Shown here one piece after another: positions 2,704 to 60,662 of a DNA stretch of 64,000 bases. The DNA lies in IMG/VR virus record IMGVR_UViG_3300031992_000005, positions 160,001-224,000 of that record. One strand, 5' to 3'. Position 1 is the first letter of the stretch, and each line of letters opens with the position of its first letter. This stretch comes from a virus. The notes beneath the pieces were generated by a model. The model did no database searches. It was given only the letters and a program-made list of their open reading frames with translations, and was not told the origin of the DNA. Both the position numbers and the translations under genes were made by a program.

Positions 2704-3642
2704 TGCAGAACTGCAAACGGTTTTGATATAAATGGTTTAGGTCAGTTAAAGGATGGTAGAGGAAATGTATGTCCAGTTACTATCATTATGCCGACCTTAG
2801 CGATGGAAGCCGACAGAGATGTAGAGAAGTTCATGCGTCTCTTAGGAAGAAAAATTGAAGAAGCAAAAGACATGTTAATTGAGAGATTCAACTGGATTTG
2901 TAGTCAAAGTCCAGAGTCTGCTAGATTTATGTATGAGAATAATACTATGGCGGGTTATGTTCCGTCAGAGGGTATTAGGTCTGCATTAAAGCATGGAACT
3001 CTCAGTTTAGGTCAGCTTGGCTTAGCAGAAACTCTCCAGTTATTGATTGGAACGGATCATACAACAGAGGAGGGTATGAAGTTAGCCAAGAGAATTGAGT
3101 CTCTTTTCAAGAAGAGATGTGCAGAATATAAAGAAAAGTATAAATTAAACTTTGGTGTATACTACACACCAGCCGAAAATCTCTGTTATACTGCATTGAA
3201 GAAATTCAGAACAAAATATGGAGTAATAAAGGATGTAAGTGATAAGGAATTTTTCACTAATTCCATCCATGTTCCTGTATGGAGAGATATGAACCCATTT
3301 GAGAAGATTGATATTGAATCTCAGCTCACGGGTTATTCTTCGGCGGGTTGTATTACTTATGTTGAACTCCCATCCACAGTATTAAATAATATTGAGGCTT
3401 TGGAGACGTTAGTGAATTATGCAATGGATAAGGATATTCCTTATTTTGCAGTTAATGTCCCAAATGATACTTGTATGGAATGTGGTCATACTGGTGAGTT
3501 CGATGTTTGTCCTGAATGTGGTTCAGATAATGTAAGTCAGTTAAAGCGAGTTACTGGCTACTTGAATCTAGATTACAGAACTTCTTTCAATGAAGGAAAG
3601 CAGGATGAAGTACGGTATAGAGTAAAACACATCAAAGGTTAG
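2704..3642 (+). CDS. nrdD: NrdD exon e (C-terminal part, glycyl-radical region)
   Basis: Reads CRTANGFD...GRGNVCPVTIIMPTLA. It has a C-terminal Zn ribbon CMECGHTGEFDVCPECG followed by KRVTGYL (glycyl radical motif RVxGY). Confidence 0.85.
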   Translation, partial: CRTANGFDINGLGQLKDGRGNVCPVTIIMPTLAMEADRDVEKFMRLLGRKIEEAKDMLIERFNWICSQSPESARFMYENNTMAGYVPSEGIRSALKHGTLSLGQLGLAETLQLLIGTDHTTEEGMKLAKRIESLFKKRCAEYKEKYKLNFGVYYTPAENLCYTALKKFRTKYGVIKDVSDKEFFTNSIHVPVWRDMNPFEKIDIESQLTGYSSAGCITYVELPSTVLNNIEALETLVNYAMDKDIPYFAVNVPNDTCMECGHTGEFDVCPECGSDNVSQLKRVTGYLNLDYRTSFNEGKQDEVRYRVKHIKG

Positions 3643-3645
3643 TTT

Positions 3646-4143
3646 ATGAGGTATATTAAAATAACAGGCCCTGATGTAGAAAATGGTCTAGGTTTTAGAA
3701 CTACGTTATGGATTTCTGGGTGTAAGTGCCATTGTGAGGGATGTCATAATCCTGAAACATGGTCCTTCACATTCGGAAAGGAGTTCACTGATGAATCTTA
3801 TCAGGAGCTAAAGGAAAATTTATCCAAGCCTTATATCAAGGGGCTAACTTTATCTGGTGGTAATCCAGTTGATTCCCCGGAAGATTTATTAAGTTTATTG
3901 AAAAGAGTAAGAGAGGATTTTGGTAATTCAAAGGACATTTGGCTTTATTCTGGCTATGTATTTGAAGATCTCCTAAAGGATCCTCTATGTAAAGAAATTT
4001 TAGGCTTAGTTGATATAGTGGTAGATGGTCCATTTATCCTAAGCAAAAGAAATACAGCGCTCCCCTTCAGAGGTTCAGAGAATCAAAGAATTATCTTGGT
4101 TCAAGAATCCCTGAAAGAGGGAAATATAATCCTAAAGCAATAA
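3646..4143 (+). CDS. nrdG: anaerobic ribonucleotide reductase activating protein (radical SAM)
   Basis: Has the CxxxCxxC cluster in GCKCHCEGCHNPETW. It starts 3 nt after the nrdD stop. Confidence 0.85.
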   Translation: MRYIKITGPDVENGLGFRTTLWISGCKCHCEGCHNPETWSFTFGKEFTDESYQELKENLSKPYIKGLTLSGGNPVDSPEDLLSLLKRVREDFGNSKDIWLYSGYVFEDLLKDPLCKEILGLVDIVVDGPFILSKRNTALPFRGSENQRIILVQESLKEGNIILKQ

Positions 4144-4493
4144 TAAATAATCCATTCCTCAGGAGAAAACTCTTGGGGAATGGCATCTGCTGAATGAAAA
4201 ATATTCATTTATATCAAAAAATATTCAAAAATAAGCAAGCTTTTTAAAATCACGTGATATTTATATATGAATACTAAGATAAATAATAAAAAAAAATAAG
4301 TGAACTTATGAAACATAAAAATATTAAAGTTGTTTCGATTGACACTGAAAATATGTTGTATACTTGTGACGATGGTAATGAATCCATTAATGGATGGGCT
4401 TGAAACATTGTCAATAGAAGAGTTACAGAAACACATAGATAGTGCAAAACAAGCAACACTTGATATAATTGAAAAAAAAATAGAAAGTAGGCT

Positions 4494-6134
4494 ATGATTA
4501 TACAGAGTAAGTATACAAAGATATTCCATTCAAAGGATTTAACTCGTCAGAAGTATGATGAGTTAAATGACTTTGCTGTGCTTATTCAAAACCATAAAAA
4601 CACCGTGTCACAATACGTTAATGATAACATTCTTCATTTCTTGGAATACAATAAGTTCCAATTCCTTAAGGTAATGAGAGAACGTTTCAAAGAAGTTATC
4701 CCAAGTTCATTTGATGCACAACTTTATACACAAGTGTTCACTTGTTATCAGAATAAATTCGATGCAATACAACGTAAACTTGTCTTTGAAATCGTTACAT
4801 TTAAAGGATTTGAGTTTTATAAACGTGATACCAAGAAACATAAGGAAGGTGACTTGAAAAAAGTAGTTTTTGATAAGAAACAAACACCATTATCTAACTG
4901 TCTTACTTATCTTGCGAGATACAGTAATGAGAATACAATAGACTACATCAATGACAATATAAGCAAGTGTGACGAGAAGAAACGTGAGTTCTATAACAAC
5001 ATACTAAGATGTTGTGATAAATTCGGATTTGAACGTCTCTACAATCTTGCTTTGTCAAAAAGAAAACGTGTTGTCAAGCATTATTCTGAATATCCTATTG
5101 AGTTCAAGTCATTAACGTTCAGTGGTAGGTGTAGGAAGACAAGGATAATAGACTACAACAGTAGGTTTGGTTCAGTAATCAATTCATTCGTAAGTCTCAG
5201 TGGAATTGGTAGGAAATCATTTGATGTACCAGTTACCTTTAATAAAGGTTGGCATGGAAGTATGAAGGATTACAGAAAGAAAAATAACGATTATGAATAC
5301 ACGCTTACATTTAATGAAAAGAATCACCAAGTGAATATTCATCTGTGTAAAGATGGAGAAAGGTATATACCACAAGTACATGGTGAAACAATAGGCATTG
5401 ATGTTAATTGCAAACATAATTTGTTCAGTTTGTCAGATGAAACCACTTATGACTATGATAGAAAACTTGTTAATGACTTCTGTAAACTATCTCTTGAAAT
5501 AGATAAATTGAAAGAAAAAGATAAAAAATATAAGGTTGGTAAACGTAAACAGCAGAAACTTGATACTCTCAAATCCAAAATGATTAAGTCTGAGCAGCAA
5601 CTTATTGCTAATATGTGTAAGGTATTACATTCACAAGGTGTGGGGCATATTGTAATGGAAGACCTTGATAATGGATTTGGCAAATGCTATGTTAAAGATA
5701 AGGATAATGAGAATATAAATTACAACAGAAAGGTTAAATTCCTTGGCTTGAGTAGTCTTAAACAAGAAGTTGAGCGTATTGCAAAGAAATATGATATTGC
5801 GGTTTCAACAGTTCAAGCAAGTTATACATCGAAGATGTGTCCTATGTGTGGATGTATTGAGGACGAAAACAGACCAAACCAAGAAACATTTGAATGTGTT
5901 GAATGTGGACATAAAGATAATGCAGACTTTAATGCTGCAAAGAACATAAGGAACAGAGTGCTTGTAATCGTGTTACGAGATTTGCTCTTAAAACAAAAGG
6001 ATAATGGTGCTTTTGAGCCTAAGAAACTTAAACGTGAGAAGGTAAAGGAGGTATTGTTATCGTTTCGAAGAAGCCTACAAAATGTAGGAAGTGAATGTAC
6101 AGAAAGTAGTGTGACTACTTTTGACTATGTTTAA
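4494..6134 (+). CDS. tnpB: TnpB-like (IS200/IS605 OrfB / Cas12-ancestor) RNA-guided endonuclease, no tnpA nearby
   Basis: RuvC-I is IGIDVN, RuvC-II is HIVMEDL, the Zn ribbon is CPMCG...CVECGH and RuvC-III is NADFNAAKNI. All catalytic positions are present. Confidence 0.85.
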   Translation: MIIQSKYTKIFHSKDLTRQKYDELNDFAVLIQNHKNTVSQYVNDNILHFLEYNKFQFLKVMRERFKEVIPSSFDAQLYTQVFTCYQNKFDAIQRKLVFEIVTFKGFEFYKRDTKKHKEGDLKKVVFDKKQTPLSNCLTYLARYSNENTIDYINDNISKCDEKKREFYNNILRCCDKFGFERLYNLALSKRKRVVKHYSEYPIEFKSLTFSGRCRKTRIIDYNSRFGSVINSFVSLSGIGRKSFDVPVTFNKGWHGSMKDYRKKNNDYEYTLTFNEKNHQVNIHLCKDGERYIPQVHGETIGIDVNCKHNLFSLSDETTYDYDRKLVNDFCKLSLEIDKLKEKDKKYKVGKRKQQKLDTLKSKMIKSEQQLIANMCKVLHSQGVGHIVMEDLDNGFGKCYVKDKDNENINYNRKVKFLGLSSLKQEVERIAKKYDIAVSTVQASYTSKMCPMCGCIEDENRPNQETFECVECGHKDNADFNAAKNIRNRVLVIVLRDLLLKQKDNGAFEPKKLKREKVKEVLLSFRRSLQNVGSECTESSVTTFDYV

Positions 6135-12783: not shown

Positions 12784-13149
12784 ATGAATAAAAATAATGA
12801 TAGTTATTATTACAAAATAGTTTTGGCGTATGAAATACCATACAACGTCTTAGATAGTAACGATCCTGATAAGATCTTAGCTAGGGAGAATCTATATCAA
12901 GCGATAACTAAGATTATTCCCACTAGTAAGTATGATAAATTTTCAGTTAAACTTATGCTTTTTCAATTAAAGGATACGTTTAACTACGTGGTGATGTTTG
13001 ACTCTTTCTTTAGGTCTACAGAAGGTTTACCTATGAGTGAGTACACTGAGGCTAGTAAGATTAAACAGGCAGCTAAGGATGAACTAGAGAAATACTTTAA
13101 TTCACTCGACTGCGATTATAAACCACTGAATATAATTACATTATTATAA
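12784..13149 (+). CDS. hypothetical protein (between RNAP subunit genes)
   Basis: From the ORF track. Its stop overlaps the beta start (ATAATG). Confidence 0.55.
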   Translation: MNKNNDSYYYKIVLAYEIPYNVLDSNDPDKILARENLYQAITKIIPTSKYDKFSVKLMLFQLKDTFNYVVMFDSFFRSTEGLPMSEYTEASKIKQAAKDELEKYFNSLDCDYKPLNIITLL

Positions 13150-16100
13150 TGAGTAATTTTAATCAATTTTTCAAAAATCAAGGGGCAAAGACGATGGTAG
13201 AGCGTTTCTTTACCGGAATAGATGAATATACGCCAAATAAGAAACTAACAAACCTAACTTGGCATCTAGCCGAAGAAGATAAACGCCCAGCTTCATATTT
13301 CATAGAAAATGGATTAACTGCAACTCATAAGGTAATCCTGGAGTATACAATTAACTATGATGATGAAATTCGTACATCTGAGTTTGAAGTCCCTAGAGAA
13401 ATAGACGGTGTATTTATTATAGAAGGAGCTTATCGTATTGCTACTAATAACCTAGGAAAAGACTATGATTGTAGAATCAATATGTCAGGTACTGGTAGAC
13501 AATACATTAACTTTGACTATGGTAGAGAATATGACATCAAGACTGGTATTCTTAAAATAAAGAGGGTAAATCCTGACTTAGGTTTACCTGAAAAAGTAAG
13601 AGAATATAAGTTAGATGAAATAGATGAACTCAGTGGTATTGAAAAAGAAGTTCTAAAACTTTCTGAAAGACAGAGAAAGAAGTTTCAGGTAAAGCTTGAT
13701 ATTGATTATTCCCCGGATTATATTTCAAAGAAGCTTATCGAGGATTGTATTGCTTATGGCGATGATAGAATTCGAGATCTTATTATTGATAAGAAGATTG
13801 ATTCTGTTCCCGTTGGTTTTATGAAGTATATCTTCAATGGAGGTAATAATAAGAACTTCTATGGTACAAAATCCCAACTAAGAAACTATTGGAGTAAGCA
13901 AGGTAAGTTACAGGACCAGATTAATGTACTTACAAATCTTTGTGCTAGATACTGGAAAGGTAGTAGTTCAAAGAAGAAAGGAGAGGATAATGATGTTCAA
14001 GTTTCTCCTGGTGTAAATGCCATGAACCTGGAAAGTATCACGAATAAAATCTATATTCCTGAAACTGTAGCTTATAATACTACCTTTAGTGACTTGATTT
14101 GTGTTGGTGCTACACCAAATAATGGTAACATCGGTAAGCAGAATGCCTTGACTGTATCTACCCATATTACAGATGAGGATGTTCTCTTTGACTGTTATAC
14201 TACCAAGTTTCAAAAGATCACTATCCCATACTTGGATTATCTTAATCATAAGGTATGTGCTAGTGAGTACGTTGACTATGATACTAATACCGTTAAACCC
14301 GATAAGGATGGTAAGGTAGAAGTTAAGCATAGAATGCGTAGAAAGATGGTACCAGTGGAGGAAATTGAGTTAATTGACCTTCACCCAGACTATCGTTTAT
14401 CAGAAGAAGTAAGACGTATACCGTTTGTGAATTTTACTGACTCTGTTCGTATCTGTATGGGTAGTGGTATGTTAAAGCAAGCTATTCCACTTGTTAATGC
14501 AGAAAGACCTCTAGTAGATACAGGTAACTATGAAGAGCTTCATACAAACGTCTTGAATGAACGTTTTAAAGAAGAGTCTGGTGTAGTTAAGGATGTAAAT
14601 GAAGAGGGAGTATTAATAGAACTTCCTAATAAGGATGAAATTCTTATTCCAAGAAAAACTGCTATTCAGAGTATAAATGATGTTGACGTCTTTACTGAGC
14701 CTAAAGTTAAGAAAGGCCAAAAGGTAAAGAAGGGTGATGTTATTACTGGAGCAGTTGGCTTGGAAGAAGATACCTATAAAATGGGTATTAATGCTCTCGT
14801 CTTATTCCATGCAATGTTTGGTGATGTCAATGAAGATGCCTTAGTAGTTAGTGAGTCTTTCTCAAAGAAAATGCACTCTTACTCTGTTATCGACCTGATA
14901 TATGAAGTAAGAACTAATGAGGCAATCAAATGGATAGCTCCAATAGGTCAACAGGTAAAGTCTAAAGATCCCGTCATGATGACCTATAAGGCTGTTAAAC
15001 TTGACTTAGTCAATAAGGCCTTGAATGATAAATTAGGTGGTATCTTTGGAGATCAAAAACTAGATCTCTCTGAATATACTATTGAAAGTAACTTGGAAGT
15101 TCCTAATGACATTGATGAAGCTTATGTTAGTGATGTTAGAATTCAGGAAAATTTACACCCTAGAGTTCCTGGTGGTACTAAGAGACCTGACTTAACTTAT
15201 GCTCATACATCAGAGGAGACTATCAAAGATTATAATTTTGATAGAAAAATTATCTATGATAGATATCCAGAATATATTGCAGCAGATAGACTTAAGGATA
15301 TATCATTAGCAGATAAGGATTATAAGATTGTTTATGTAGTTCGTATTAGACTTATTAAGAGAACAAATCTTATGATCGGATCTAAGGTTACCAACCGTTA
15401 TGGTGGTAAGGGTGTCATTTCTAAGATCTTGCCAGATGATAAGATGCCAATCATGGTAGAATCTGCAACTGGTAATAAGAAAGTTGTGGATATTGTCATG
15501 AACCCTTATAGTACAATTAACCGAAAGATTCCTTCTGTTAATATGGAGAGTCTCTTAGGTTCAATTGCGCATAGAATTCATGACATAGTAGATGAGAGGA
15601 AAAATGATAAGAAAAAACAGGAAACTATCATGCCTCTTGTTCAGAAGTATTATCCTGGTCGATTTGATGGAATGACATTAGAGAAGTTCTTGAAGTTACA
15701 TGAAAATAGTAAACTTGAGGACGTATATTACTTCAATGTAGGTAGTTACTCTAGACTTACTCCAAAGCAGATAGATGAATGGGCAAAGGAATTAGGTGTT
15801 ACACCTCAATCAAAGATTCTCATGCCTAGTGATACTATCGCTGACCTTGATGAGCTTAAAGCGAACTTAAGTGAGGAAGAATATAATACCGCCGTTAAGA
15901 ACTTGACAGGTAGATACGTAGAAGTTGAAAAGCCACTTAGTGTTGGTTATATGACTATGGAAGAACTATATCAAATTCCAACTTATAGTGATAAGGTAAC
16001 TTCTAGTATGTTCGGTGTTGATGTTAATGAGTGGGTAGATTCTCCTATTATGGGTAGAGGTGGTTATAGAAAAACTGGTCAGATTATCGGTGAAATGGAG

Positions 16101-16310
16101 CTCATGGCATACTTGTCAAGAAATGCCAGAGATTTCATTAAGCTCTCTAGAGGAGATACCTCAAGAGAAGATAATCAGCTCTTCTTGAATAACCTCTTAG
16201 GTCTTGGTCTAACTGTTACAGACAGTAAGGGTTATAATCAGGGCGGTTCATCTCTCAAGAGTAGACTTGGTGAGATGAAGACTAAATTCAGACTAAAGAA
16301 TCAGAAATAA
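13149..16310 (+). CDS. multisubunit RNA polymerase beta-like subunit
   Basis: TNRYGGKGVISKILP (cf. SRHGNKGVISKI), VDIVMNPYSTINRKIPS (cf. LNPLGVPSRMN) and GQIIGEMELMAYLS (cf. GEMEVWALEAYG). Uninterrupted, 1053 aa. Confidence 0.85.
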   Translation: MSNFNQFFKNQGAKTMVERFFTGIDEYTPNKKLTNLTWHLAEEDKRPASYFIENGLTATHKVILEYTINYDDEIRTSEFEVPREIDGVFIIEGAYRIATNNLGKDYDCRINMSGTGRQYINFDYGREYDIKTGILKIKRVNPDLGLPEKVREYKLDEIDELSGIEKEVLKLSERQRKKFQVKLDIDYSPDYISKKLIEDCIAYGDDRIRDLIIDKKIDSVPVGFMKYIFNGGNNKNFYGTKSQLRNYWSKQGKLQDQINVLTNLCARYWKGSSSKKKGEDNDVQVSPGVNAMNLESITNKIYIPETVAYNTTFSDLICVGATPNNGNIGKQNALTVSTHITDEDVLFDCYTTKFQKITIPYLDYLNHKVCASEYVDYDTNTVKPDKDGKVEVKHRMRRKMVPVEEIELIDLHPDYRLSEEVRRIPFVNFTDSVRICMGSGMLKQAIPLVNAERPLVDTGNYEELHTNVLNERFKEESGVVKDVNEEGVLIELPNKDEILIPRKTAIQSINDVDVFTEPKVKKGQKVKKGDVITGAVGLEEDTYKMGINALVLFHAMFGDVNEDALVVSESFSKKMHSYSVIDLIYEVRTNEAIKWIAPIGQQVKSKDPVMMTYKAVKLDLVNKALNDKLGGIFGDQKLDLSEYTIESNLEVPNDIDEAYVSDVRIQENLHPRVPGGTKRPDLTYAHTSEETIKDYNFDRKIIYDRYPEYIAADRLKDISLADKDYKIVYVVRIRLIKRTNLMIGSKVTNRYGGKGVISKILPDDKMPIMVESATGNKKVVDIVMNPYSTINRKIPSVNMESLLGSIAHRIHDIVDERKNDKKKQETIMPLVQKYYPGRFDGMTLEKFLKLHENSKLEDVYYFNVGSYSRLTPKQIDEWAKELGVTPQSKILMPSDTIADLDELKANLSEEEYNTAVKNLTGRYVEVEKPLSVGYMTMEELYQIPTYSDKVTSSMFGVDVNEWVDSPIMGRGGYRKTGQIIGEMELMAYLSRNARDFIKLSRGDTSREDNQLFLNNLLGLGLTVTDSKGYNQGGSSLKSRLGEMKTKFRLKNQK

Positions 16311-17414: not shown

Positions 17415-18524
17415 ATGAGAAAGAAAAAAGAAAAAGAAAAAGTAAAAGTAGATCAGCCTGAATTGATCGAAGAGGTTGTAGAACAACAGCCTGAAGAAAA
17501 CCTGGCTAAGGAAAATTCGGCTGAAGAAAAAGTTGTAGCGGAAGTTCCTAAGAAAAAGACTTCGAGAAATTCAAATCTTCACGAAGCTAAACGTGCGAAG
17601 AATGATGAATTCTATACTCAATTAACGGATATTGAAAAGGAATTGTCACATTATAAAAAACATTTTAAAGGGAAAGTTGTTTTTTGTAACTGTAATGATG
17701 CAATTCATGGTAACTTTGCCAAATATTTTTCTTTAAGCTTTGAAGCCCTAGGATTAAAACAACTAATCTGTACTTCCTATGGAGAGAATGCTAAGGTCTT
17801 TATCTATAGTGGAGATAAGAATGGCAATAGAGTCCCAGACTTAGAAGATTGGGAAATTCAAGACTTAAAGGGTGACGGTGATTTCAGGAGTGATGAAATG
17901 ATTGAACTCCTTAAGAAGGCTGATATTGTTTGTACAAATCCACCATTTTCTTTGTTTAGGGAGTATATCGCTCAGTTAATTCAGTTTGATAAAAAATTCC
18001 TCATCATTGGTAATGGAAATGCTGTTACATACAAGGAGTTTTTCCCACTTATAAAAGAAAATAAAGTATGGCTTGGATGCACCTTATTCTGTGGAAAAAT
18101 GCCTTTTTTTAAGGTTCCAAATGACACAGATGTTTCTAAAGGCGCAAAGCATTACTATGATAAGAACGGAGAGCTTTTTAAACAAGTAAATTCTATTGCA
18201 TGGTTTACTAATCTTGACCATAACCGTCGTCATCAGCCAATAGATTTATATAAGAAATATACTCCAGAGGAATTTCCAAAGTATGACAATTATGACGCTA
18301 TCAACGTAGACAAAACTTGTGATATTCCAATAGATTATAATGGAGTTATGGGTGTGCCAATTTCATTTCTAGATAAATATTGTCCTACTCAATTTCAAAT
18401 CATAGGAATAACAGAAAATGCGAATTATCTAAGTGGTTTATATATTAAAGGCTGTGATAAATATGACAGACCTTATATTAATGGGAAAAGAATGTATAGT
18501 AGAATTTTAATTAAGAAACTATAA
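17415..18524 (+). CDS. N6-adenine DNA methyltransferase (EcoRI-methylase-like family)
   Basis: NDEFYTQ ... VFCNCND ... IVCTNPPFSLF (motif IV NPPF). The N-terminus is K/E-rich. Confidence 0.8.
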   Translation: MRKKKEKEKVKVDQPELIEEVVEQQPEENLAKENSAEEKVVAEVPKKKTSRNSNLHEAKRAKNDEFYTQLTDIEKELSHYKKHFKGKVVFCNCNDAIHGNFAKYFSLSFEALGLKQLICTSYGENAKVFIYSGDKNGNRVPDLEDWEIQDLKGDGDFRSDEMIELLKKADIVCTNPPFSLFREYIAQLIQFDKKFLIIGNGNAVTYKEFFPLIKENKVWLGCTLFCGKMPFFKVPNDTDVSKGAKHYYDKNGELFKQVNSIAWFTNLDHNRRHQPIDLYKKYTPEEFPKYDNYDAINVDKTCDIPIDYNGVMGVPISFLDKYCPTQFQIIGITENANYLSGLYIKGCDKYDRPYINGKRMYSRILIKKL

Positions 18525-28620: not shown

Positions 28621-29044
28621 GGAAATTTTAGTAGGAAGTAGGGCTTTTTTCTCTGAGTTTCCAGATTTTAATTCAAAAGATAAAGATTTGGTTAAATTAG
28701 TAGATTCAAGCCCCTTCTTTAAAAAATATGGTCAGATACATTTAAGAAACCTTTGTTGTTTTGAATTTATCATGACCACAAAAGAACAATTTATACAAGA
28801 TGCGTTAGATTCAGAATTAGGGATGACATTGGGAAAATTTTTAGTTCCAGAATTTTGTAAAGAAATAGATTTTACAATAGAAGATCTTCCTAGGCTAAGA
28901 CACCTAGTTGAGATCTTAGACCCTAAACATTCTTATGAGAAGTTGATTTATGACTTCTACTTAGAGAATGGAGAAATGATTCTAACAAAAAATCAATTAC
29001 AAATAGTCTACGAAGAATATAAGAAAACTCGGGAGGCGGAATAA
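28613..29044 (+). CDS. hypothetical protein
   Basis: From the ORF track. Its start overlaps the stop of the LRR gene. Confidence 0.5.
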   Translation: MDKEILVGSRAFFSEFPDFNSKDKDLVKLVDSSPFFKKYGQIHLRNLCCFEFIMTTKEQFIQDALDSELGMTLGKFLVPEFCKEIDFTIEDLPRLRHLVEILDPKHSYEKLIYDFYLENGEMILTKNQLQIVYEEYKKTREAE

Positions 29045-29074
29045 TATGTTCCCCTCCCATTAATAATAATTGTT

Positions 29075-29497
29075 ATGAAGAAATTAGTTATGGCTGCCTT
29101 CCTCTTGTTGCTATCTTGGAAGGTTTTTGCTCAGGATTCAACCAATTATTGGACCCCGATTATAGAAGCAATAATAAAAGTAGAAAGTGGCGGAAATCCT
29201 AAGGCAGTGTCTAGGACAGGAGCTTACGTTGGTATACTTCAGATCTCAAAGGGCCTAGTTGATGATGTTAATTCTTACCTAAGACATAAAGGTGAAACAA
29301 CTAGGTACGCTTATTCCGATCGACTTAATCCTGATAAATCTAAGGAAATGTTTATCCTATATCAGGAAAAGTACAATAAGCATAAAAGTGTAGAAAAAGC
29401 AATAAGAATCTGGAACGGTGGTCCTAAGCATACCATCAAAGGAACACAAGCTTACCTAAAGAGAGTTCTGAGACACCTGGAACCAGGGGAGGGATAA
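29075..29497 (+). CDS. secreted lytic transglycosylase / lysozyme-like (SLT domain)
   Basis: Signal peptide MKKLVMAAFLLLLSWKVFAQ. Catalytic region is IKVESGGNPKAVS...GILQIS. Confidence 0.75.
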   Translation: MKKLVMAAFLLLLSWKVFAQDSTNYWTPIIEAIIKVESGGNPKAVSRTGAYVGILQISKGLVDDVNSYLRHKGETTRYAYSDRLNPDKSKEMFILYQEKYNKHKSVEKAIRIWNGGPKHTIKGTQAYLKRVLRHLEPGEG

Positions 29498-29541
29498 AAA
29501 CCTCCCTCTAGGAAGCCACTATTTCCTTACTAATGGAGGTT

Positions 29542-29627
29542 GCCGGGATGACGGAATGGGTGAGACGTGACAGATTTAAAATCTGTTGGCTATTGCAGCC
29601 GTGTGGGTTCGAATCCCATTCCCGGTA
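29542..29627 (+). tRNA. tRNA-Leu (TAA)
   Basis: Acceptor is GCCGGGA/TCCCGGT and the anticodon arm is ACAGA/TTTAAAA/TCTGT. The long variable arm is GGCTATTGCAGCC and the T-arm is GTGGG/TTCGAAT/CCCAT. Confidence 0.85.
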
Positions 29628-29706
29628 CTTACAGCATTCGAACATGATATTTTTATGGTTTTTTGGAAGGGTCCGTCCGTGAGGGATAGATCCTTCTTTT
29701 TTTCTT

Positions 29707-29727
29707 CCCCTTAATGCCTTATATATG
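29707..29727 (+). promoter_or_regulatory. phage promoter-like consensus
   Basis: CCCCTTAATGCCTTATATATG. Confidence 0.5.
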
Positions 29728-29841
29728 TAATGTTTATTTTTCATTATTAATTTATTTTATATGTAATGTTTATTTTTCATTATTAATTTATTTTGAATTG
29801 GGAAGAGTCAGTCCGGGATGGATAGACTCTTTTTTTTTTAT

Positions 29842-29864
29842 CCCCCCAATGCCTTATATATAAG
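29842..29864 (+). promoter_or_regulatory. phage promoter-like consensus
   Basis: CCCCCCAATGCCTTATATATAAG. Confidence 0.5.
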
Positions 29865-29936
29865 ATTCCATTTTTATATTTTTATATTGGTTTTAGAAGG
29901 ATCAGTCCGAGATGGATAGATCTTTCTTTTTTATTC

Positions 29937-29960
29937 CCCTTAATGCCTTATATATATAGA
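29937..29960 (+). promoter_or_regulatory. phage promoter-like consensus
   Basis: CCCCTTAATGCCTTATATATATAG. Confidence 0.5.
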
Positions 29961-30031
29961 AATTTTGTTTTTACCATATTTAAATTGGGAAGAGTCAGTC
30001 CGAGATGGATAGGCTCTTTTTTTTTACCCTT

Positions 30032-30056
30032 CCCCATTAATGCCTTATGTATATAA
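30032..30056 (+). promoter_or_regulatory. phage promoter-like consensus (drives gene at 30068)
   Basis: CCCCATTAATGCCTTATGTATATAA. The ATG at 30047 lies inside this motif. Confidence 0.5.
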
Positions 30057-30067
30057 ATTTAATAAAA

Positions 30068-30328
30068 ATGCAATGTATGAACTATGAAAGGTTATATTCC
30101 CCGGATACGAAAGTGGTTTGTAAAACAGTAGGGGAAGATATCTCTGCTACTCACATAGCGGAGATATTAAAGAATAAGTTTTTAGAGAATGATATCTTCC
30201 TTCAGGAGGGTGATCATTTTATATTGGGGAAATCGCAGTATTTCATTGTCCTAGTTTCCCCAGTGGTGAACGAAGGAATGGATTTCTTTGAGGAGATCCA
30301 ATTTACAGTTGAAACGGTAGAGATGTAG
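30068..30328 (+). CDS. hypothetical protein
   Basis: This is ORF 30047..30328 trimmed to the first ATG downstream of the promoter motif. A terminator hairpin agatgta-gaaa-tacatct overlaps the stop. Confidence 0.5.
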   Translation: MQCMNYERLYSPDTKVVCKTVGEDISATHIAEILKNKFLENDIFLQEGDHFILGKSQYFIVLVSPVVNEGMDFFEEIQFTVETVEM

Positions 30329-30396
30329 AAATACATCTTTACTTTTTTCTTTCCTTAAAAGCTTTAATAATGTATAGTTAATAAATAAGAAAAATT

Positions 30397-31059
30397 ATGA
30401 AATACCTATTAGAGTATTTAGAAGAAGTTGTTAAAATAACACCAAAAGGTGAAGTAACGACAGAAGAAGACGAAATTAATGGTCTTTCAGGTGAAAGTGT
30501 TTATATAGATGGTAAGTGTAGTGATATTTTCGTCGCCCACGTAGATTATCTTAGGTGGATTGAAAGAGTTTTAGAGGAAAGTATCGCTGATGAAAGATAT
30601 AATGTTGGCGATTGGGTTATCGACGAAGATGGATGCGCATGGTTTATTGAGGAAATTAATCCCGTAAGCTATAAATTAGTGTCTAAGTCAGCCCAAAGAA
30701 AACTGATAAGTAGATCTGAAGCTCGCACTACACTTAGACCTTGGACGATAGATGATGCTAAGGCATTCGATTACTTGATGGTGAGAAGCAAAGATTACGG
30801 CTATGTGGCTATTATTATGTGTGGTCAAGATAGTACTAATGGTCTCATTTGTGGTATATGTGGAATTGAGCTCGTAAAGAACGAAAACATACATGCTCCT
30901 TGGTTAAAAGGAATATCCACAAAGGATTATATTATTGTACCAGCATTAGATGGTCAGAGGCAAGAATTATCGAAACTTGGGCCAAACTCTCCCGAAGTAA
31001 TTATGAGTGAGGAGATGAGGAGAGAGTTCTTAGCTTATTCAATTACTAACCGATCATGA
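30397..31059 (+). CDS. hypothetical protein
   Basis: From the ORF track. Its stop overlaps the next start (ATGA). Confidence 0.55.
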   Translation: MKYLLEYLEEVVKITPKGEVTTEEDEINGLSGESVYIDGKCSDIFVAHVDYLRWIERVLEESIADERYNVGDWVIDEDGCAWFIEEINPVSYKLVSKSAQRKLISRSEARTTLRPWTIDDAKAFDYLMVRSKDYGYVAIIMCGQDSTNGLICGICGIELVKNENIHAPWLKGISTKDYIIVPALDGQRQELSKLGPNSPEVIMSEEMRREFLAYSITNRS

Positions 31060-51920: not shown

Positions 51921-51994
51921 TAATCCGAGAGGGATTCGAACCCTCGACCCCAACATTAAAAGTGTTGTGCTCTGGCCAACTGAGCTATCGAATT
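51921..51994 (-). tRNA. tRNA-Lys (TTT)
   Basis: Cloverleaf is AATTCGA-TA-GCTC/AGTTGGCCA/GAGC-A-CAACA/CTTTTAA/TGTTG-GGGTC-GAGGG/TTCGAAT/CCCTC-TCGGATT-A. The promoter motif ctcatatataaggtttt is directly upstream. Confidence 0.85.
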
Positions 51995-52030
51995 ATATCT
52001 CATATATAAGGTTTTGAAGGGAAAGAAAAA

Positions 52031-52058
52031 GAAAGGGAAACAATCTCTGCTTCCTTTC
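52031..52058 (-). terminator. terminator hairpin family copy 2
   Basis: Reverse complement is GAAAGGAAGCAGAGATTGTTTCCCTTTC plus a U-run. Confidence 0.55.
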
Positions 52059-52085
52059 TTTTCTTATCCTAGTTCTCTCTCAGAC

Positions 52086-52640: not shown

Positions 52641-52761
52641 TAATTCGAGAGGGAATCGAACCCCCGACCTCCCCGATATATTAGCTTTATATACCTGGTG
52701 TTCTACCTCAGAAAACCTAAACATAAGATCTAATCGTAGATTTTCTCTGAACTATCGAATT
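52641..52761 (-). tRNA. aberrant 121-nt tRNA-like gene (canonical acceptor and T-arm, expanded D-loop and anticodon arm, anticodon undetermined)
   Basis: AATTCGA-TA-GTTC-[45-nt loop with hairpin AGAAAATCTA...TAGGTTTTCT]-GAAC-A-[28-nt arm CCAGGTATAT/AAAGCTA/ATATATCGGG]-AGGTC-GGGGG/TTCGATT/CCCTC-TCGAATT-A. It has the same promoter/terminator cassette as tRNA-Lys. Confidence 0.45.
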
Positions 52762-52806
52762 ATTCTTATATATAAGGCTTTGAAGGGTTATATGGAAGAA
52801 AAAAAA

Positions 52807-52834
52807 GAAAGGGAAACAATTTCTGCTTCCTTTC
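52807..52834 (-). terminator. terminator hairpin family copy 3
   Basis: Reverse complement is GAAAGGAAGCAGAAATTGTTTCCCTTTC plus a U-run. Confidence 0.55.
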
Positions 52835-52856
52835 TTTTTATGTTGTTTTAGAAGGG

Positions 52857-56938: not shown

Positions 56939-57369
56939 GGGGATAATGCCTTATATATGTAATTTATATTATCTTTCATACATGTTTACTAAAGGGGATC
57001 GTCCGTGATGGATATATCCCCTCATTTTTTTGTTCAAAAAAAATAGGATCGAGATATACATATTACTATGTATAACCCTGACTGACTATTCTTTTTGAGA
57101 TTTATTATACTCTATATATATCTATTTATAAGGCATTAAGGGGAGAAAAAATACCGCCCCAGAAAGAGAAAAATGCCTTATATATAGAAACAGACGCATA
57201 ATAATTTAATTTCATAATAATAACTAGGGGATCGGTTCGTGATGAATAGATCCTTTTTTTTTCATATCCCTTTAATGCTTTATATATGATCATAAAAAAT
57301 ATTTTTTTAAGTTTGAAAATAATGATTGGAGGATCAGTCCGGGATGGATAGATCCTCTTTTTTTTTTTG
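56939..57369. repeat. four ORF-less mini-cassettes (three on +, one on -)
   Basis: + promoters are at 56939, 57170 and 57267, with family hairpins at 56993-57022, 57226-57255 and 57328-57357 plus T-runs. The - promoter is at 57110-57145, with a hairpin plus U-run at 57036-57075. Confidence 0.55.
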
Positions 57370-57403
57370 TTCAAAAAAAATCCCCCGACACGGGGATTCC
57401 TTT

Positions 57404-57655: not shown

Positions 57656-57702
57656 AATTGTTAGGTGTTGTGTTTATATACTCTTAAGGTATTAAGAGGG
57701 AA

Positions 57703-57848
57703 GAAAAAAAAAGAGAGGGGAACCCGTTTTAGAGAGTTGACTGATCGTCTGTGCGTCTGTGGGTTCCCCGGAGTGCAGCTGAGCCCGTCCTTTCGATCAT
57801 CGGCGGGGTCCGATCTGCTGCAATTTTCTAAAATCTAATTCCTTTATG
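57703..57848 (-). ncRNA. candidate G+C-rich structured ncRNA of unknown class with own promoter and terminator
   Basis: The - strand promoter CCCCTTAAATCCTTATATATG is at 57851-57871. Stems are TGCAGC/GCTGCA, ATCGG/CCGAT and GGGGAACCC/GGGTTCCCC plus a U-run. It is strikingly GC-rich in an AT-rich context and has no ORF. Confidence 0.5.
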
Positions 57849-57850
57849 TT

Positions 57851-57871
57851 CATATATAAGGATTTAAGGGG
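57851..57871 (-). promoter_or_regulatory. phage promoter-like consensus (- strand)
   Basis: Reverse complement is CCCCTTAAATCCTTATATATG. Confidence 0.5.
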
Positions 57872-57885
57872 ATTTCAGATTCTTC

Positions 57886-58497
57886 AAAAAAAAGAGAGGA
57901 TCTATCCGTCTCGGACCAATCCTCTAAAAATTATTTAACCTAAATATGATTGTTATGAATGTTTTACATATATAAGAGTTTAAGGGGATAAAAAAAAGAG
58001 GATGACCTATCACAGGCGACCCTCTTCTTCAATAACAAAAATTTAAATCTTTAAATCTATGGATATAATATACAACATATATAAGGGTTTAAAGGGATAA
58101 AAAAAAGAGGAGATCTATCCATCTCGGACTGATCTCCACCTGACATCTGAATATACATCATACTAAAATGAGAGTATTACACGTTAATAAGGAATTAAGG
58201 GGATAAAAAAAAAGAGAATCTATCCATCTCGGACTGATCCTCTAATAAGAAACATTCTATTAATTCTTAAACTTTTACATATATAAGAATTTAAGGGGAT
58301 GAAAAAAAAAAAGAGAATCTATCCATCACGAACTGATCCTCTTCAGAGTAAAATAAACATTACACGTACATATATAAGGCATTTAAGGGGTATAAAAAAA
58401 ATGACCGACTCATCACGAGCCAGCCATTGAATAATTTTTGAACTTTTTTTACCCAAGAAAAATAAGTACTTTCATTTATAAGAATTTAAAGGGATTT
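57886..58497 (-). repeat. tandem array of six ORF-less mini-cassettes directly downstream of polA
   Basis: Period is about 100 bp. Promoter motifs are at about 57967, 58073, 58175, 58272, 58363 and 58470. Family hairpins are at 57894-57925, 57998-58027, 58107-58137, 58214-58243, 58313-58344 and 58402-58426, each with a U-run. Confidence 0.6.
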
Positions 58498-58545
58498 GAG
58501 AAAATAGACCAGCCCCACATTAAAGGCTGGCCCACAGAATTAATA

Positions 58546-58935
58546 TTATAGTCGGTGAAACCTAACGGTCACCTTTGATACATCCATCGATATAGAACAA
58601 CCATTTTCTAAGATTGTTCTGTAATATGGATCTTCAATCATCTTCTTTTCTGATACTAGCTCTTCCCTAGTCTTATCACATTCACACCTGATACTAGGGG
58701 AATTCATTAATTTGTCATAAATTAATATAAGATTACTAGCAGGACCAGAAAATTCTATCGTATTTTTGTCTATCTGCGTTAATGGACATGCAGATTCATA
58801 TCCATATCCACACAAAAGATCAAACAGTAACTTTATCTTTGGCCCAATAGTTGCACAATAATCCGTATATTTTTCATCATAATATGCCCTAATATCAAAT
58901 ATGTGATCTATTGGAATAAGATTAGTATTAGAATC
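58546..58935 (-). CDS. polA: family-A DNA polymerase, last exon
   Basis: Begins DSNTNLIPIDHIF..., and joining to ...QPIITVH restores motif C (VHD). The first 4 codons of ORF 58546..58947 are intron. Confidence 0.65.
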   Translation of the reverse strand, partial: DSNTNLIPIDHIFDIRAYYDEKYTDYCATIGPKIKLLFDLLCGYGYESACPLTQIDKNTIEFSGPASNLILIYDKLMNSPSIRCECDKTREELVSEKKMIEDPYYRTILENGCSISMDVSKVTVRFHRL

Positions 58936-59237
58936 CGTTCTCTTCACATAAATTCGCTACATTTATGCCGGGCAATGCCACAGCTAATCATCTCTGATTA
59001 GACGAGACTATATCTTCAGTAAATAATTACTGCCTACTTTTTCGAACACCCATCGCTTGTGCTCTACTCTACTCACTTCTTCAGGTTTCCCCTATGCTTT
59101 CGATAGTCGTTGAATAAGTTTATAACTTACTGCTGATTGACTCTATTCATTGGATTTTTACTTCTATTCGATAGTACCAATGACCTAACAAGTTGTTCCA
59201 GCAATTAAGTAGGTTTATAGTGCACCATAAACTAACA
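58936..59237 (-). mobile_element. group I intron, ORF-less (polA intron 5)
   Basis: P1 is GUGCAU/GUGCAC with U.G at 59238. It has the Q element AATCAGCAG, CGACTATCG ... AAGATATAGTCTCG and terminal G at 58936. It is homologous to the ends of intron 60663..62159. Confidence 0.7.
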
Positions 59238-59637
59238 ATGCACTGTAATAATAGGTTGTAATGGTTGCTTCCAACCATCTTTAATTGATGACCTAATATT
59301 ATTAAAGAATCCACTAGCCATAATTGTACTAGTTCCTCCTTGAATAGGTAAATTTACACCTAATCTTTTGATTCTGGCAATTATATTTTGCGCTTCTTTT
59401 TGATCTTTTGCTTTTGGCAAATATTCATAATACTCCCTTAACCTTAATTTGTCTCCTAACATGGTATTAATGTAACCATCATGATCTAATGGATACTGAC
59501 CCTGAGACTCCACATATTCCCTGAGCTTTGGAAAAGACTTATATAAACTCTGGATAATATTCTCAGCTTCTTCAACAGAACTATCTAGTCGAGCTGCTAA
59601 GGAATTTTTCCCTAAGCCGTACAATACACCCAAGAAT
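59238..59637 (-). CDS. polA: family-A DNA polymerase exon (fingers/motif B)
   Basis: Reads (I)FLGVLYGLGKNSLAARL... and NLPIQGGTSTIMASGF (cf. N.PIQGSAAD), ending ...IITVH. Confidence 0.8.
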
Positions 59638-59932
59638 CATTACTACTCATAATTTCTTATGAGATTAGACTATATCATTATCCGATTATTCGGATAGGTT
59701 GCACTTCGGAATAGAGAATTTCACTCTAAACCTACTCCTCGGTTAAAATTATTTTAACGTCATAGGATAGTCGTTACACTTTCTTAGACTAATCTAAGCT
59801 TAGCACGGTATTGGCATATCTTATTATTAAGACTTAGCTTTCCACCGTTAGCACTAATAAATTAGTACACCCTAGATTTCTAGGTTCACAACCTTTTCAT
59901 TAACTAATTACTTAGTTATGCCACATCTATCT
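59638..59932 (-). mobile_element. group I intron, ORF-less (polA intron 4)
   Basis: P1 is CCAU/GUGG with U.G at 59933. It has AACGACTATCCTATGACG ... AATGATATAGTCTAATC and terminal G at 59638. It is near-identical in core to nrdD intron 3. Confidence 0.7.
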
Positions 59933-60080
59933 ATGGTCTTGAATTTCTTTCTATAAGTCTTTTGTTCTTTTTTACTAAGGTTATTCCAACCTTCTTCACC
60001 TAAATATAGTTTCGAACTATATATGTATATGTCTTCTCCAGCGTTGAACTTACTTATTAGATCAGGATCCAAAGACGCGT
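59933..60080 (-). CDS. polA: family-A DNA polymerase exon
   Basis: Reads (Y)ASLDPDLISKFNAGEDIYIYSSKLYLGEEGWNNLSKKEQKTYRKKFKT(I), cf. Pol I ...S.D..L..AF..G.DIH..TA......R..AK..NFG. Confidence 0.7.
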
Positions 60081-60336
60081 CAATTTTGTTATCCTTAGAA
60101 CTTTTTATTTCTAAGTTCAATTGATTCTTAATTCTCAATTGTTCAGCATATATTTTCACCCTATTAGATAGGGTGGGGAACACTCGTGGTAGGATTATTC
60201 TATTCGTCACCTACTATGCGTTACACTACTAGGATACCTTTAATATTATCTTAGTTAGCACGGTATTGGCATCTCAGCTTTCACCGTTTTTGCTCCCTGT
60301 ACCCCGTAATATTACTATTACGGTGGGCAATTTTTT
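60081..60336 (-). mobile_element. group I-like intron, ORF-less (polA intron 3, same family as nrdD intron 2)
   Basis: P1 is GGGU/GCCC with U.G at 60337. It has GGGAGCAAAAACGGTGAAAGCTGAGATGCCAATACCGTGCTAAC. The 3' module CTTAGAAATAAAAAGTTCTAAGGATAACAAAATTG ends in G at 60081. Confidence 0.6.
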
Positions 60337-60350
60337 ACCCCGCGCTCTTA
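60337..60350 (-). CDS. polA: inferred 14-nt polA micro-exon
   Basis: TAAGAGCGCGGGGT supplies ..(I)KSAG(Y).. between two introns, which keeps the frame and motif A. Confidence 0.4.
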
Positions 60351-60647
60351 CAGATTGTTACCCTATAGGCTTTTTATCCTATAGTTCTATGGATTCATTT
60401 TATCCATAGCTCGGCATATATTTTCATCCTAGATAACTAGGATGACGGACACTCGTGGAGAGATTATATTTATTCACTCTCTATGCTCTACACTACTTAC
60501 TTAACCTTTCGCAATTTAAATAAGTTAGCACGGTATTGGCATCTCAGCTTTCACCGTTTTTGCCCGTTTATTATCACTTACATTACTATAAGTGACGGCT
60601 AAATTTTAACCTCGGCACTACTACATTGTGTTCAGGAGGCACGTTAC
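60351..60647 (-). mobile_element. group I-like intron, ORF-less (polA intron 2, same family as nrdD intron 2)
   Basis: P1 is GGAGAU/GCCUCC with U.G at 60648. It has GGGCAAAAACGGTGAAAGCTGAGATGCCAATACCGTGCTAAC. The 3' module CTATAGGATAAAAAGCCTATAGGGTAACAATCTG ends in G at 60351. Confidence 0.6.
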
Positions 60648-60662
60648 ATCTCCCGGTTCTCA
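60648..60662 (-). CDS. polA: inferred 15-nt polA micro-exon
   Basis: TGAGAACCGGGAGAT supplies (I)ENRE(I). Its Glu aligns with the conserved motif-A Glu (DYSQIELR). Confidence 0.4.

Follow-up and report, generated by a model that had tools for sequence, protein, structure and literature searches.

Tandem gene-less promoter-hairpin units in an uncultured jumbo phage as candidate short non-coding transcription units

The closest described counterparts of the locus considered here come from two groups of phages. T4-type phages carry promoter-early stem-loop (PeSL) cassettes (Arbiol et al. 2010, PMC2839356; Comeau et al. 2014, PMC4122927). The virion RNA polymerases (RNAPs) of jumbo phages of the AR9 and phiKZ type use extended, highly conserved AT-rich promoters, which start transcription a few nucleotides downstream and lie before small early genes (PMC5312081), while phiKZ and 201phi2-1 produce short units with a terminator directly after the start site and possess conserved terminator motifs (PMC10914365, PMC11512511). 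The control of transcription by the own RNAPs of jumbo phages is known from only a few cultured phages of Pseudomonas and Bacillus. Here we describe an array of repeated promoter and hairpin modules in a 64,000-nt stretch of viral DNA, positions 160,001-224,000 of the IMG/VR record IMGVR_UViG_3300031992_000005 (hereafter the window, in whose coordinates positions are given unless a relative is named). The array lies between a tRNA-Leu gene and a block of small open reading frames (ORFs), and its organization suggests, with a probability that we put at roughly 0.55, that it is a tandem set of autonomous, gene-less short non-coding transcription units in a jumbo phage that has a multisubunit RNAP of its own.

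The array comprises four hairpins (hp0 to hp3) alternating with four promoter motifs (P1 to P4), all on the plus strand (Table 1). A first-pass annotation made from the sequence had counted three units; three ORF-less units are indeed present, but they are better counted as four terminators and four promoters because the first hairpin is predicted to end the tRNA unit and the last promoter to drive the small-ORF block. The promoters, hairpins and T-runs which it had listed were all recovered to within 1-2 nt, with T-runs ending at 29839, 29932 and 30025. The first hairpin, hp0, is placed 35 nt 3' of tRNA-Leu and folds into a 9-bp outer stem, a 1x1 internal loop, a GUCC/GGAU inner stem and a pentaloop; T-runs throughout the array are 6-10 long. 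Tandem Repeats Finder assigns the units a period of 94, the individual periods ranging from 93 to 136 nt, and the spacers are approximately 90% AT. The region is also devoid of any ORF of useful length, as had been claimed: the plus strand holds only ORFs of 33-49 codons which cross hairpins, T-runs and promoter motifs, and the sole other ORF is one of 78 codons antisense to the tRNA. The fourth promoter copy (30036-30055, with the one-mismatch core AATGCCTTATGTA at 30039-30051), which the first-pass annotation had left out of its count, is found 13 nt 5' of the ATG of the 86-codon ORF with which the small-ORF block begins.

Table 1. Positions of the array features, the flanking genes and the two sister arrays in the window
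Feature	Position	Strand	Basis
tRNA-Leu (anticodon UAA), upstream gene	29542..29628	+	ARAGORN; Rfam tRNA model, 55.4 bits
Family hairpin hp0 (29664-29699) and 7-T run, predicted terminator of the tRNA/late unit	29664..29703	+	Covariance model R1, 48.7 bits; fold
Candidate promoter P1: CCCC box 29707-29710 and TTAATGCCTTATATATG 29711-29727	29707..29727	+	Exact motif match
Perfect 36-bp tandem duplication, 2 copies, in unit-1 spacer	29723..29794	+	Tandem Repeats Finder
Spacer 1: AT-rich, ORF-less; predicted 5' part of unit-1 RNA	29728..29799	+	
Family hairpin hp1 and 10-T run	29800..29839	+	R1, 53.1 bits; fold
Candidate promoter P2: CCCCCC 29842-29847 and AATGCCTTATATATA 29848-29862	29842..29862	+	Motif match
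Spacer 2: homologous to tRNA 3' trailer 29629-29663	29863..29893	+	Repeat family D5
Family hairpin hp2 and T-run	29894..29932	+	R1, 51.1 bits; fold
Candidate promoter P3: CCCC 29936-29939 and TTAATGCCTTATATATA 29940-29956	29936..29956	+	Motif match
Spacer 3: 3' part homologous to spacer 1	29957..29986	+	
Family hairpin hp3 and 9-T run	29987..30025	+	R1, 50.6 bits; fold
Candidate promoter P4: CCCTTCCCC and ATTAATGCCTTATGTATATA, one mismatch	30027..30055	+	Motif match
First gene of small-ORF block, 86 aa, no Pfam match	30068..30328	+	Called as gene in L003 (ERZ27257202)
Sister array B: three ORF-less units, same grammar, no downstream plus-strand gene	56945..57370	+	Motif and hairpin scans
Sister array C: six to seven ORF-less units downstream of split DNA polymerase gene	57690..58500	-	Motif and hairpin scans

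The candidate promoters share a CCCC box followed by (TT)AATGCCTTATATAT(R), and the 13-mer AATGCCTTATATA with up to two mismatches has 28 matches in the window, as against 4.39 expected and 11 in the largest shuffle. Nearly all of the approximately 27 promoter sites that can be recognized occur in one context, namely a hairpin, a T-run and a C-rich box and then the motif; that is, a stem-loop terminator of the PeSL kind stands immediately 5' of a conserved promoter at nearly every one of them. Some 17 of them precede a co-oriented ORF by 6-60 nt and so are placed like the virion-RNAP promoters, with an enriched, extended AT-rich motif 5' of small hypothetical genes. Promoters of that class give rise to early transcripts that do not depend on protein synthesis. 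Other sites directly precede tRNA genes: at tRNA-Lys, 8-10 nt separate TATATA from the 5' end of the tRNA, and this places the predicted start site within ~8 nt of the motif. The motif CCTTATATAT(R) is not sigma-70-like, and the -35/-10 elements of a host sigma-70 early promoter, as found in PeSLs, are absent from it; a sigma-70 scan of 29000-31000 gave three sites where 7.9 were expected, none of them at the units. The plus strand also contains two copies (29525-29541 and 30350-30375) of what may be a second class of promoter, CYTTA(A/C)TAATG. The first starts 17 nt ahead of the tRNA-Leu 5' end, which is the spacing of the main motif to tRNA-Lys, and the second precedes a 220-aa gene and lies just upstream of the point (30383-30389) where three independent assemblies (L007-L009) start.

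The window encodes an RNAP beta-like subunit at 13149-16310 (PHROG; Pfam Rpb2_6), the mark of a multisubunit enzyme such as those of the phiKZ/AR9-type phages; its identity to the subunits of AR9, PBS1 and Staphylococcus jumbo phages is ~25-28% over an aligned quarter of the protein only. Orthologues with 70-72% identity were found on 15 IMG/VR contigs of up to 350 kb, and exact matches to window proteins on contigs of 0.2-1 Mb and 108 kb; judging from these genes and contig sizes, the source of the window is an uncultured jumbo phage with its own multisubunit RNAP. The relatives with the 70-72% identical subunit display a related but shifted motif, CCCCTAGAATCCTTAWWAGTGA, which would be the expected product of co-evolution between polymerase and promoter.

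The hairpins of the array constitute a distinct family. Their core, GTCCGNGAKGGATAG, has 11 matches in the window against 0.27 expected, and a covariance model (R1) finds exactly 11 strong copies of at least 36.8 bits, the next match scoring 20.7. All 11 sit in three ORF-less arrays at 29.7 kb (+), 56.9-57.4 kb (+) and 58.4-57.9 kb (-), whereas the terminators before ordinary gene promoters use other hairpins; likewise, the 15 RNAP-region loci of relatives (~135 kb) contain only four family-hairpin matches. All copies have a common fold with an outer stem of 7-10 bp, usually a 1x1 mismatch, the GUCC/GGAU inner stem, a GNGA(N) loop and a U-run, and the hairpin is formed in every minimum-free-energy fold, whole unit RNAs having energies of -12 to -23 kcal/mol. 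A stable RNA hairpin directly before a U-run is the signature of an intrinsic terminator, and we predict that the family hairpins act as such. In a structure-blind MAFFT alignment of 21 copies, 96% of the cells are paired, with 42 double-sided changes against 14 in shuffles. A larger alignment of 30 copies (the window and seven further loci), which was fitted to the hairpin model and therefore favors the structure, gives 97% pairing and 93 double-sided changes against 27 in shuffles, while slid registers pair at 31-56%. The outer stem covaries freely and the inner stem occasionally (C-G to U-A), but the first inner pair is G·U in 30/30 copies, and little or no variation is seen at the loop positions G, G and A and in the 3' AUAG. 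Because of its G·U pairs, the structure is specific to the transcribed strand. Rfam searches of the window at the gathering threshold recovered no known family beyond tRNAs and a group I intron, and relaxed searches of both array regions gave chance-level small-RNA matches far below the gathering scores. Two kinds of candidate homologues were rejected: the two exact matches of the hairpin 17-mer in IMG/VR, both within coding sequence, are due to chance, and four matches of a two-hairpin pattern in GC-rich metagenome-assembled genomes are unrelated, the two viewed in full being tandem repeats.

The proximity of the array to a tRNA gene, its periodicity and the presence of ORFs of 33-49 codons might be accounted for by a read-through 3' untranslated region (UTR) of tRNA-Leu, by an array akin to CRISPR (clustered regularly interspaced short palindromic repeats) or to an RNA anti-CRISPR, or by micro-peptide genes, but we regard this set of explanations as extremely improbable. 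As the strong hairpin with its 7-T run follows so soon after the tRNA, and each unit has the full promoter consensus seen before genes and tRNAs, a 3' UTR is unlikely as the sole explanation. The repeats are only 69-82% identical to each other, with covarying outer stems, uneven periods, a promoter in each unit and no match to a CRISPR or any other known RNA family in Rfam, all of which is at odds with a CRISPR-like array. The small ORFs run across T-runs and promoters and have no ATG-initiated frame common to the units. One micro-ORF frame, GTC-CGN-GAK-GGA-TAG, was considered and rejected: it stays open for 21 codons in one unit of the window and for 39 codons in the relative L012, but no ATG-initiated frame recurs consistently from unit to unit.

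Two sister arrays in the window (Table 1) bear out the first-pass claim that the cassette grammar is shared with the region at 57.9-58.5 kb: motif scans and the covariance model reveal at 57-58.5 kb the same order of motif, short ORF-less spacer, and family hairpin with T-run. In total, 10-11 promoters of the window are followed by a family hairpin with no intervening ORF. In the window the hairpin core follows the end of CCTTATATAT after 36-51 nt (84 nt where the 36-bp duplication is included), and across loci the spacer lengths cluster at 36-68 nt. As array B has no downstream gene on its strand, the units are more than leaders for a following gene. At 57690-57852 (-) we also noticed a GC-rich insert of ~110 nt, in this genome of 34% G+C, which is placed between a family promoter (57865, -) and a T-run. 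It contains no ORF, matches nothing in Rfam and has a fold z-score of only -1.5; a structured non-coding RNA is conceivable.

Comparable arrays recur in related phages. Five loci (L010, L011 and L014 (AAAGCCTTATATATG), L012, and L015 on a 305-kb IMG/VR contig) possess the same hairpin apex with different outer stems and retain the order promoter-spacer-hairpin-promoter, the L014 array being situated downstream of a family-A DNA polymerase gene, like the 58-kb array of the window. A search for two hairpin cores 75-105 nt apart further uncovered four IMG/VR contigs of 139-342 kb (L016-L019) with arrays of 5-9 ORF-less units; these contigs carry the 70-72% identical RNAP subunit. In L016 and L018 five successive units can be aligned, with identities of 80% in the flanks, 73% in the modules (hairpin, linker and promoter) and 57% in the spacers (46% counting gaps). 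The spacers also tolerate tandem duplications of 36 nt and 10 nt.

Under our preferred reading, in which the arrays are stacked autonomous units, transcription would begin at the phage promoter (CCCC)..AATGCCTTATATAT(R), within ~8 nt after TATATA, cross an unconstrained AT-rich spacer of 30-70 nt and stop at the clade-specific intrinsic terminator. The RNAs predicted for the second and third units measure ~71 and ~70 nt, and that of the first ~113 nt, or ~77 nt if the duplication is left out. The ORF-less units would thus span 70-113 nt, within the distance of less than 250 nt between start and termination that characterizes phage short transcription units; the conserved part of their RNAs would be the 3' hairpin only. 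At the borders, hp0 would close the tRNA-Leu/late unit and P4 would open the small-ORF block, so that the array might mark the boundary between two transcription blocks. Selection would act on the promoter and hairpin modules and on the presence of multiple units, and not on the sequence of the spacers.

The low conservation of the spacers also bears on an alternative that places the function in them. It is conceivable that the units encode trans-acting antisense small RNAs, in which the variable 5' spacer is a seed for host or phage mRNAs and the hairpin is only a terminator or stabilizer. The layout, in which an unstructured AU-rich 5' segment leads into a terminator hairpin, accords with this, and a spacer of the 58-kb array (57926-57976, -) is predicted to pair across the start-codon region of gene 54202(-) at -22.4 kcal/mol, which beats 30/30 shuffles. 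This is, however, one match among ten spacers; for the three spacers of the array at 29.7 kb no in-window target stood above shuffles (RNAduplex, 94 start regions), and spacers that are 57% identical where the flanks of the same relatives are 80% identical, and that accommodate 36-nt and 10-nt duplications, hardly resemble constrained seeds. We thus deem it quite improbable. Two apparently perfect antisense matches were discarded as artefacts, as the spurious antisense ORFs concerned overlap the spacers themselves. The array could alternatively act at the DNA level as a transcription-primed replication origin, like T7 primary or T4 R-loop origins. The T7 primary origin consists of the tandem promoters phi1.1A/1.1B followed by an AT-rich stretch, a design which the tandem promoters and ~90% AT spacers of the array recall. 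There is nothing in support beyond this likeness; the absence of a skew inflection at 29.7 kb, the strong terminator with RNA-type G·U pairs after each spacer and the presence of three arrays within 64 kb all argue against an origin, and we hold it to be very improbable.

Several observations indicate that the array is evolving by gain, loss and exchange of repeated elements. The perfect 36-bp duplication was confirmed by Tandem Repeats Finder (period 36, 2.0 copies, 100% match, 29722-29794) and, as had been proposed, starts within the TATATG of P1, inside TATATATG. That its copy number varies is shown by comparison of assemblies: the near-identical genome ERZ27257202 (L003), which matches the window at 100% along 3.7 kb and at 99.9% along the 1.8 kb that follow, has one copy of the unit, whereas L013, which is 97% identical, has two, together with four hairpins and promoters as in the window. 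The duplication had been called fresh, but it is not private to this genome; as both the window and L013 have it, the two-copy state predates their split, and the recent event at this repeat may be a loss rather than a gain. Two Logan contigs that are 100% identical to the window respectively end and begin inside the 36-bp unit. A parallel is offered by a 10-nt tandem duplication in a spacer (TTATTAGTTT) which is found in L017 (10160-10175) and not in L016 (3000-3010).

At a larger scale, the tRNA trailer with hp0 resembles spacer 2 with hp2, and spacer 1 with hp1 resembles spacer 3 with hp3. This A-B-A'-B' homology implies that the array arose by duplication of a two-unit block. Elsewhere in the window, the segments 52725-52840 (-) and 51960-52075 (-) contain a near-identical duplicate of ~95 nt made up of a terminator, a promoter and the first ~17 nt of tRNA-Lys, i.e. 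a truncated pseudo-tRNA, which indicates that modules duplicate along with adjacent sequence. The earlier suggestion of slippage or unequal recombination is therefore borne out by the 36-bp length polymorphism, the Logan breaks within the repeat, the A-B-A'-B' homology and the module-linked duplications, and we propose that the array changes by replication slippage at the 36-bp repeat and by unequal or ectopic recombination between modules. Between the window and L013 the modules differ at 18 of 253 nt and the spacers at 1 of 136 nt, against a baseline of 2.3%, a comparison from which we draw nothing on spacer constraint, divergence among these genomes being mosaic with 0-65 differences per 200 nt. 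The repeated modules are, from these sequence comparisons, hot spots of change, as would be expected for ectopic conversion and slippage in T-runs. The plasticity associated with PeSLs, which flank small ORFs and coincide with indels and exchanges, is accordingly encountered here as the 36-bp indel, the module differences, the tRNA-fragment duplicate and the 10-nt duplication of L017. Recombination between PeSL cassettes also releases excised mini-circles. L013 differs from the window in a further respect: its tRNA-Leu(UAA), at 3520-4440 (-) and equivalent to 29542-29628 of the window, has the anticodon loop split by an insertion of ~0.84 kb. This insertion carries the gene of a 224-aa HNH endonuclease and matches the group I intron model (40.7 bits, E = 1.3e-8; the gathering score, 50, is not reached). 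The adjoining exon sequence departs from that of the intron-less window allele, as expected from co-conversion in intron homing.

Such plasticity raises the question of whether the arrays amount to punctuation and recombination debris, that is, PeSL-like terminator-promoter cassettes stacked empty by unequal recombination, with any transcripts being by-products and the array serving at most as an insulator between the late/tRNA and early regions. This would fit the documented biology of PeSLs (PMC2839356, PMC4122927), the position of nearly every window promoter directly after a hairpin, T-run and CCCC, the copying of the tRNA trailer into spacer 2 within the A-B-A'-B' structure, the duplicated terminator-promoter-tRNA-Lys fragment at 52.7 kb, the excess of differences in modules over the baseline between close relatives, and the unconserved spacers. 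Yet direct repeats ~95 nt apart should collapse in debris, while the five units of L016 and L018 are still alignable where their flanks have fallen to 80% identity. Arrays are likewise found in lineages with an RNAP beta-like subunit of only 70-72% identity, array B is not followed by any gene that it could insulate or drive, the family hairpin is specific to arrays while gene terminators elsewhere use other hairpins, and the invariant G·U and GNGA loop exceed what a plain terminator needs. The persistence of synteny despite closely spaced direct repeats, together with the clade-wide recurrence, the clustered spacer lengths and the restriction of the hairpin to units, suggests that the units are kept by selection, and we accordingly view debris as a doubtful explanation, albeit one with some standing.

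The apex of the hairpin, with its G·U pair, GNGA loop and 3' AUAG, suggests a protein recognition site, because a G·U is invariant where a Watson-Crick pair would be more stable and the GNGA is likewise invariant, beyond the needs of a plain stem. A protein that binds the apex might control termination or antitermination, or the RNA might titrate it. This raises the more tentative possibility that the arrays encode, in multiple gene copies, short hairpin RNAs of a new, clade-wide family, the apex of which is bound by a specific phage or host protein, a proposal that we rate as rather unlikely as it stands. In one version of it, the hairpins would form a terminator switch of the multisubunit phage RNAP controlled by a factor, as in the boxB/N system, and the stacked promoters would deliver a timed burst of downstream transcription; in another, the RNA would be a decoy that titrates a host factor early in infection.

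Certain points weigh against the stacked-unit reading. The functions of the promoter and terminator are read from sequence, and the unit RNAs could be functionless by-products. Since the spacer sequence is unconserved, a classical base-pairing small RNA is unlikely, and spacer 2, derived from the duplicated tRNA trailer, looks like recombinational debris. A 39-codon ORF fills one unit of L012. The L015 hairpin follows a protein gene and has no T-run, so the link of the hairpin to ORF-less units and to termination is not a strict one. Finally, the conservation of the apex could result from common descent combined with selection for a very stable terminator of the GNRA type.

Regarding the wider genome, the window has a G+C content of ~34% and six tRNA genes. 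The LRR_5 (BspA-type) proteins that the phage encodes, and an SLT-lysozyme whose only named homologues (46-51% identity) are from Prevotella metagenome-assembled genomes, weakly point to a host among the Bacteroidota. Among GenBank phages, nucleotide similarity to the array or its flanks was lacking, barring a weak match (BLAST E = 0.4) to LR756501.1, a 735-kb uncultured phage, in which the segment 1470-1535 (L024) comprises a hairpin terminator, a T-run, CCC and CCTTATATATATG. This module-like arrangement, a single example, is a hint that promoters of this type also exist in very large uncultured phages. Other genes of the window include a 546-aa TnpB-like protein at 4494-6134 (+), with a Cas12f1-like TNB domain (PF07282, E = 1e-16) and a weak OrfB_IS605 match, and an EcoRI-type adenine methyltransferase at 17415-18524 (+; PF13651, E = 5e-127), presumably an anti-restriction self-methylase. 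The family-A DNA polymerase gene next to array C occupies 58549-64000 (-) in at least three coding pieces, with identities of 38%, 30% and 35% to the L014 gene, which is intact and encodes 1247 aa; the interruptions in the window gene are a group I intron (58984-59262) and an HNH endonuclease ORF (60814-61983).

For an uncultured clade of ~290-350-kb phages, these results furnish a candidate promoter consensus, a clade-specific covarying terminator hairpin and a recurrent stacked, gene-less design. If the short RNAs exist, they would be among the largest paralogous families of phage non-coding RNAs, with ~14 units in 64 kb, and the invariant apex of their hairpin could be used as bait to find the protein that reads it. 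The modules also help to explain local genome plasticity, including duplications, indels and assembly breaks, and may be useful as annotation marks for early transcription units in these phages. In our assessment the array is a real regulatory or small-RNA feature, one that extends known phage regulatory designs rather than a new kind of system.

This is best appreciated by comparison with those designs. The boxB of the nut sites of lambda and P22 is a short stem with a GNRA-like pentaloop that is bound by the N protein. The GNGA(N) loop of the family hairpin, on its 4-bp stem 36-68 nt after the promoter motif, recalls boxB in having a GNRA-like pentaloop on a short stem and a conserved apex a few tens of nucleotides 3' of a phage promoter, though this is a resemblance only: the outer stem and U-run of the hairpin here lead one to expect termination rather than the loading of an antiterminator, and boxA and an N-like protein were not found, no systematic search for them having been made. 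With CRISPR and RNA anti-CRISPR arrays the locus has in common a periodic hairpin "repeat" and a variable "spacer", but it differs in the promoter and terminator of each unit, the non-identical covarying repeats, the varying periods and the lack of cas genes nearby. The likeness to phiKZ, 201phi2-1 and AR9 extends to a jumbo phage with a multisubunit RNAP, an extended AT-rich promoter before small hypothetical genes and tRNAs (PMC5312081), a shared terminator motif and a terminator, predicted here, less than 250 nt after the start site; yet the motif sequences are unrelated, the RNAP subunits are distant, and the short transcripts reported from those phages are single 5'UTR or intergenic units and not arrays with a promoter per unit such as are predicted here. 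In architecture the modules resemble the PeSL cassettes, as both combine a composite stem-loop terminator with an immediately following conserved promoter of the early type, occur as many intergenic repeats among small ORFs, and are linked to indels, duplications and exchanges between close relatives. Unlike in PeSLs, the promoter of the present modules is a phage-specific extended motif and not sigma-70-like, and the phage has a multisubunit RNAP of its own; no ORFs separate the stacked cassettes, of which relatives have up to nine in a row; and one hairpin with an invariant apex is reserved for the ORF-less units.

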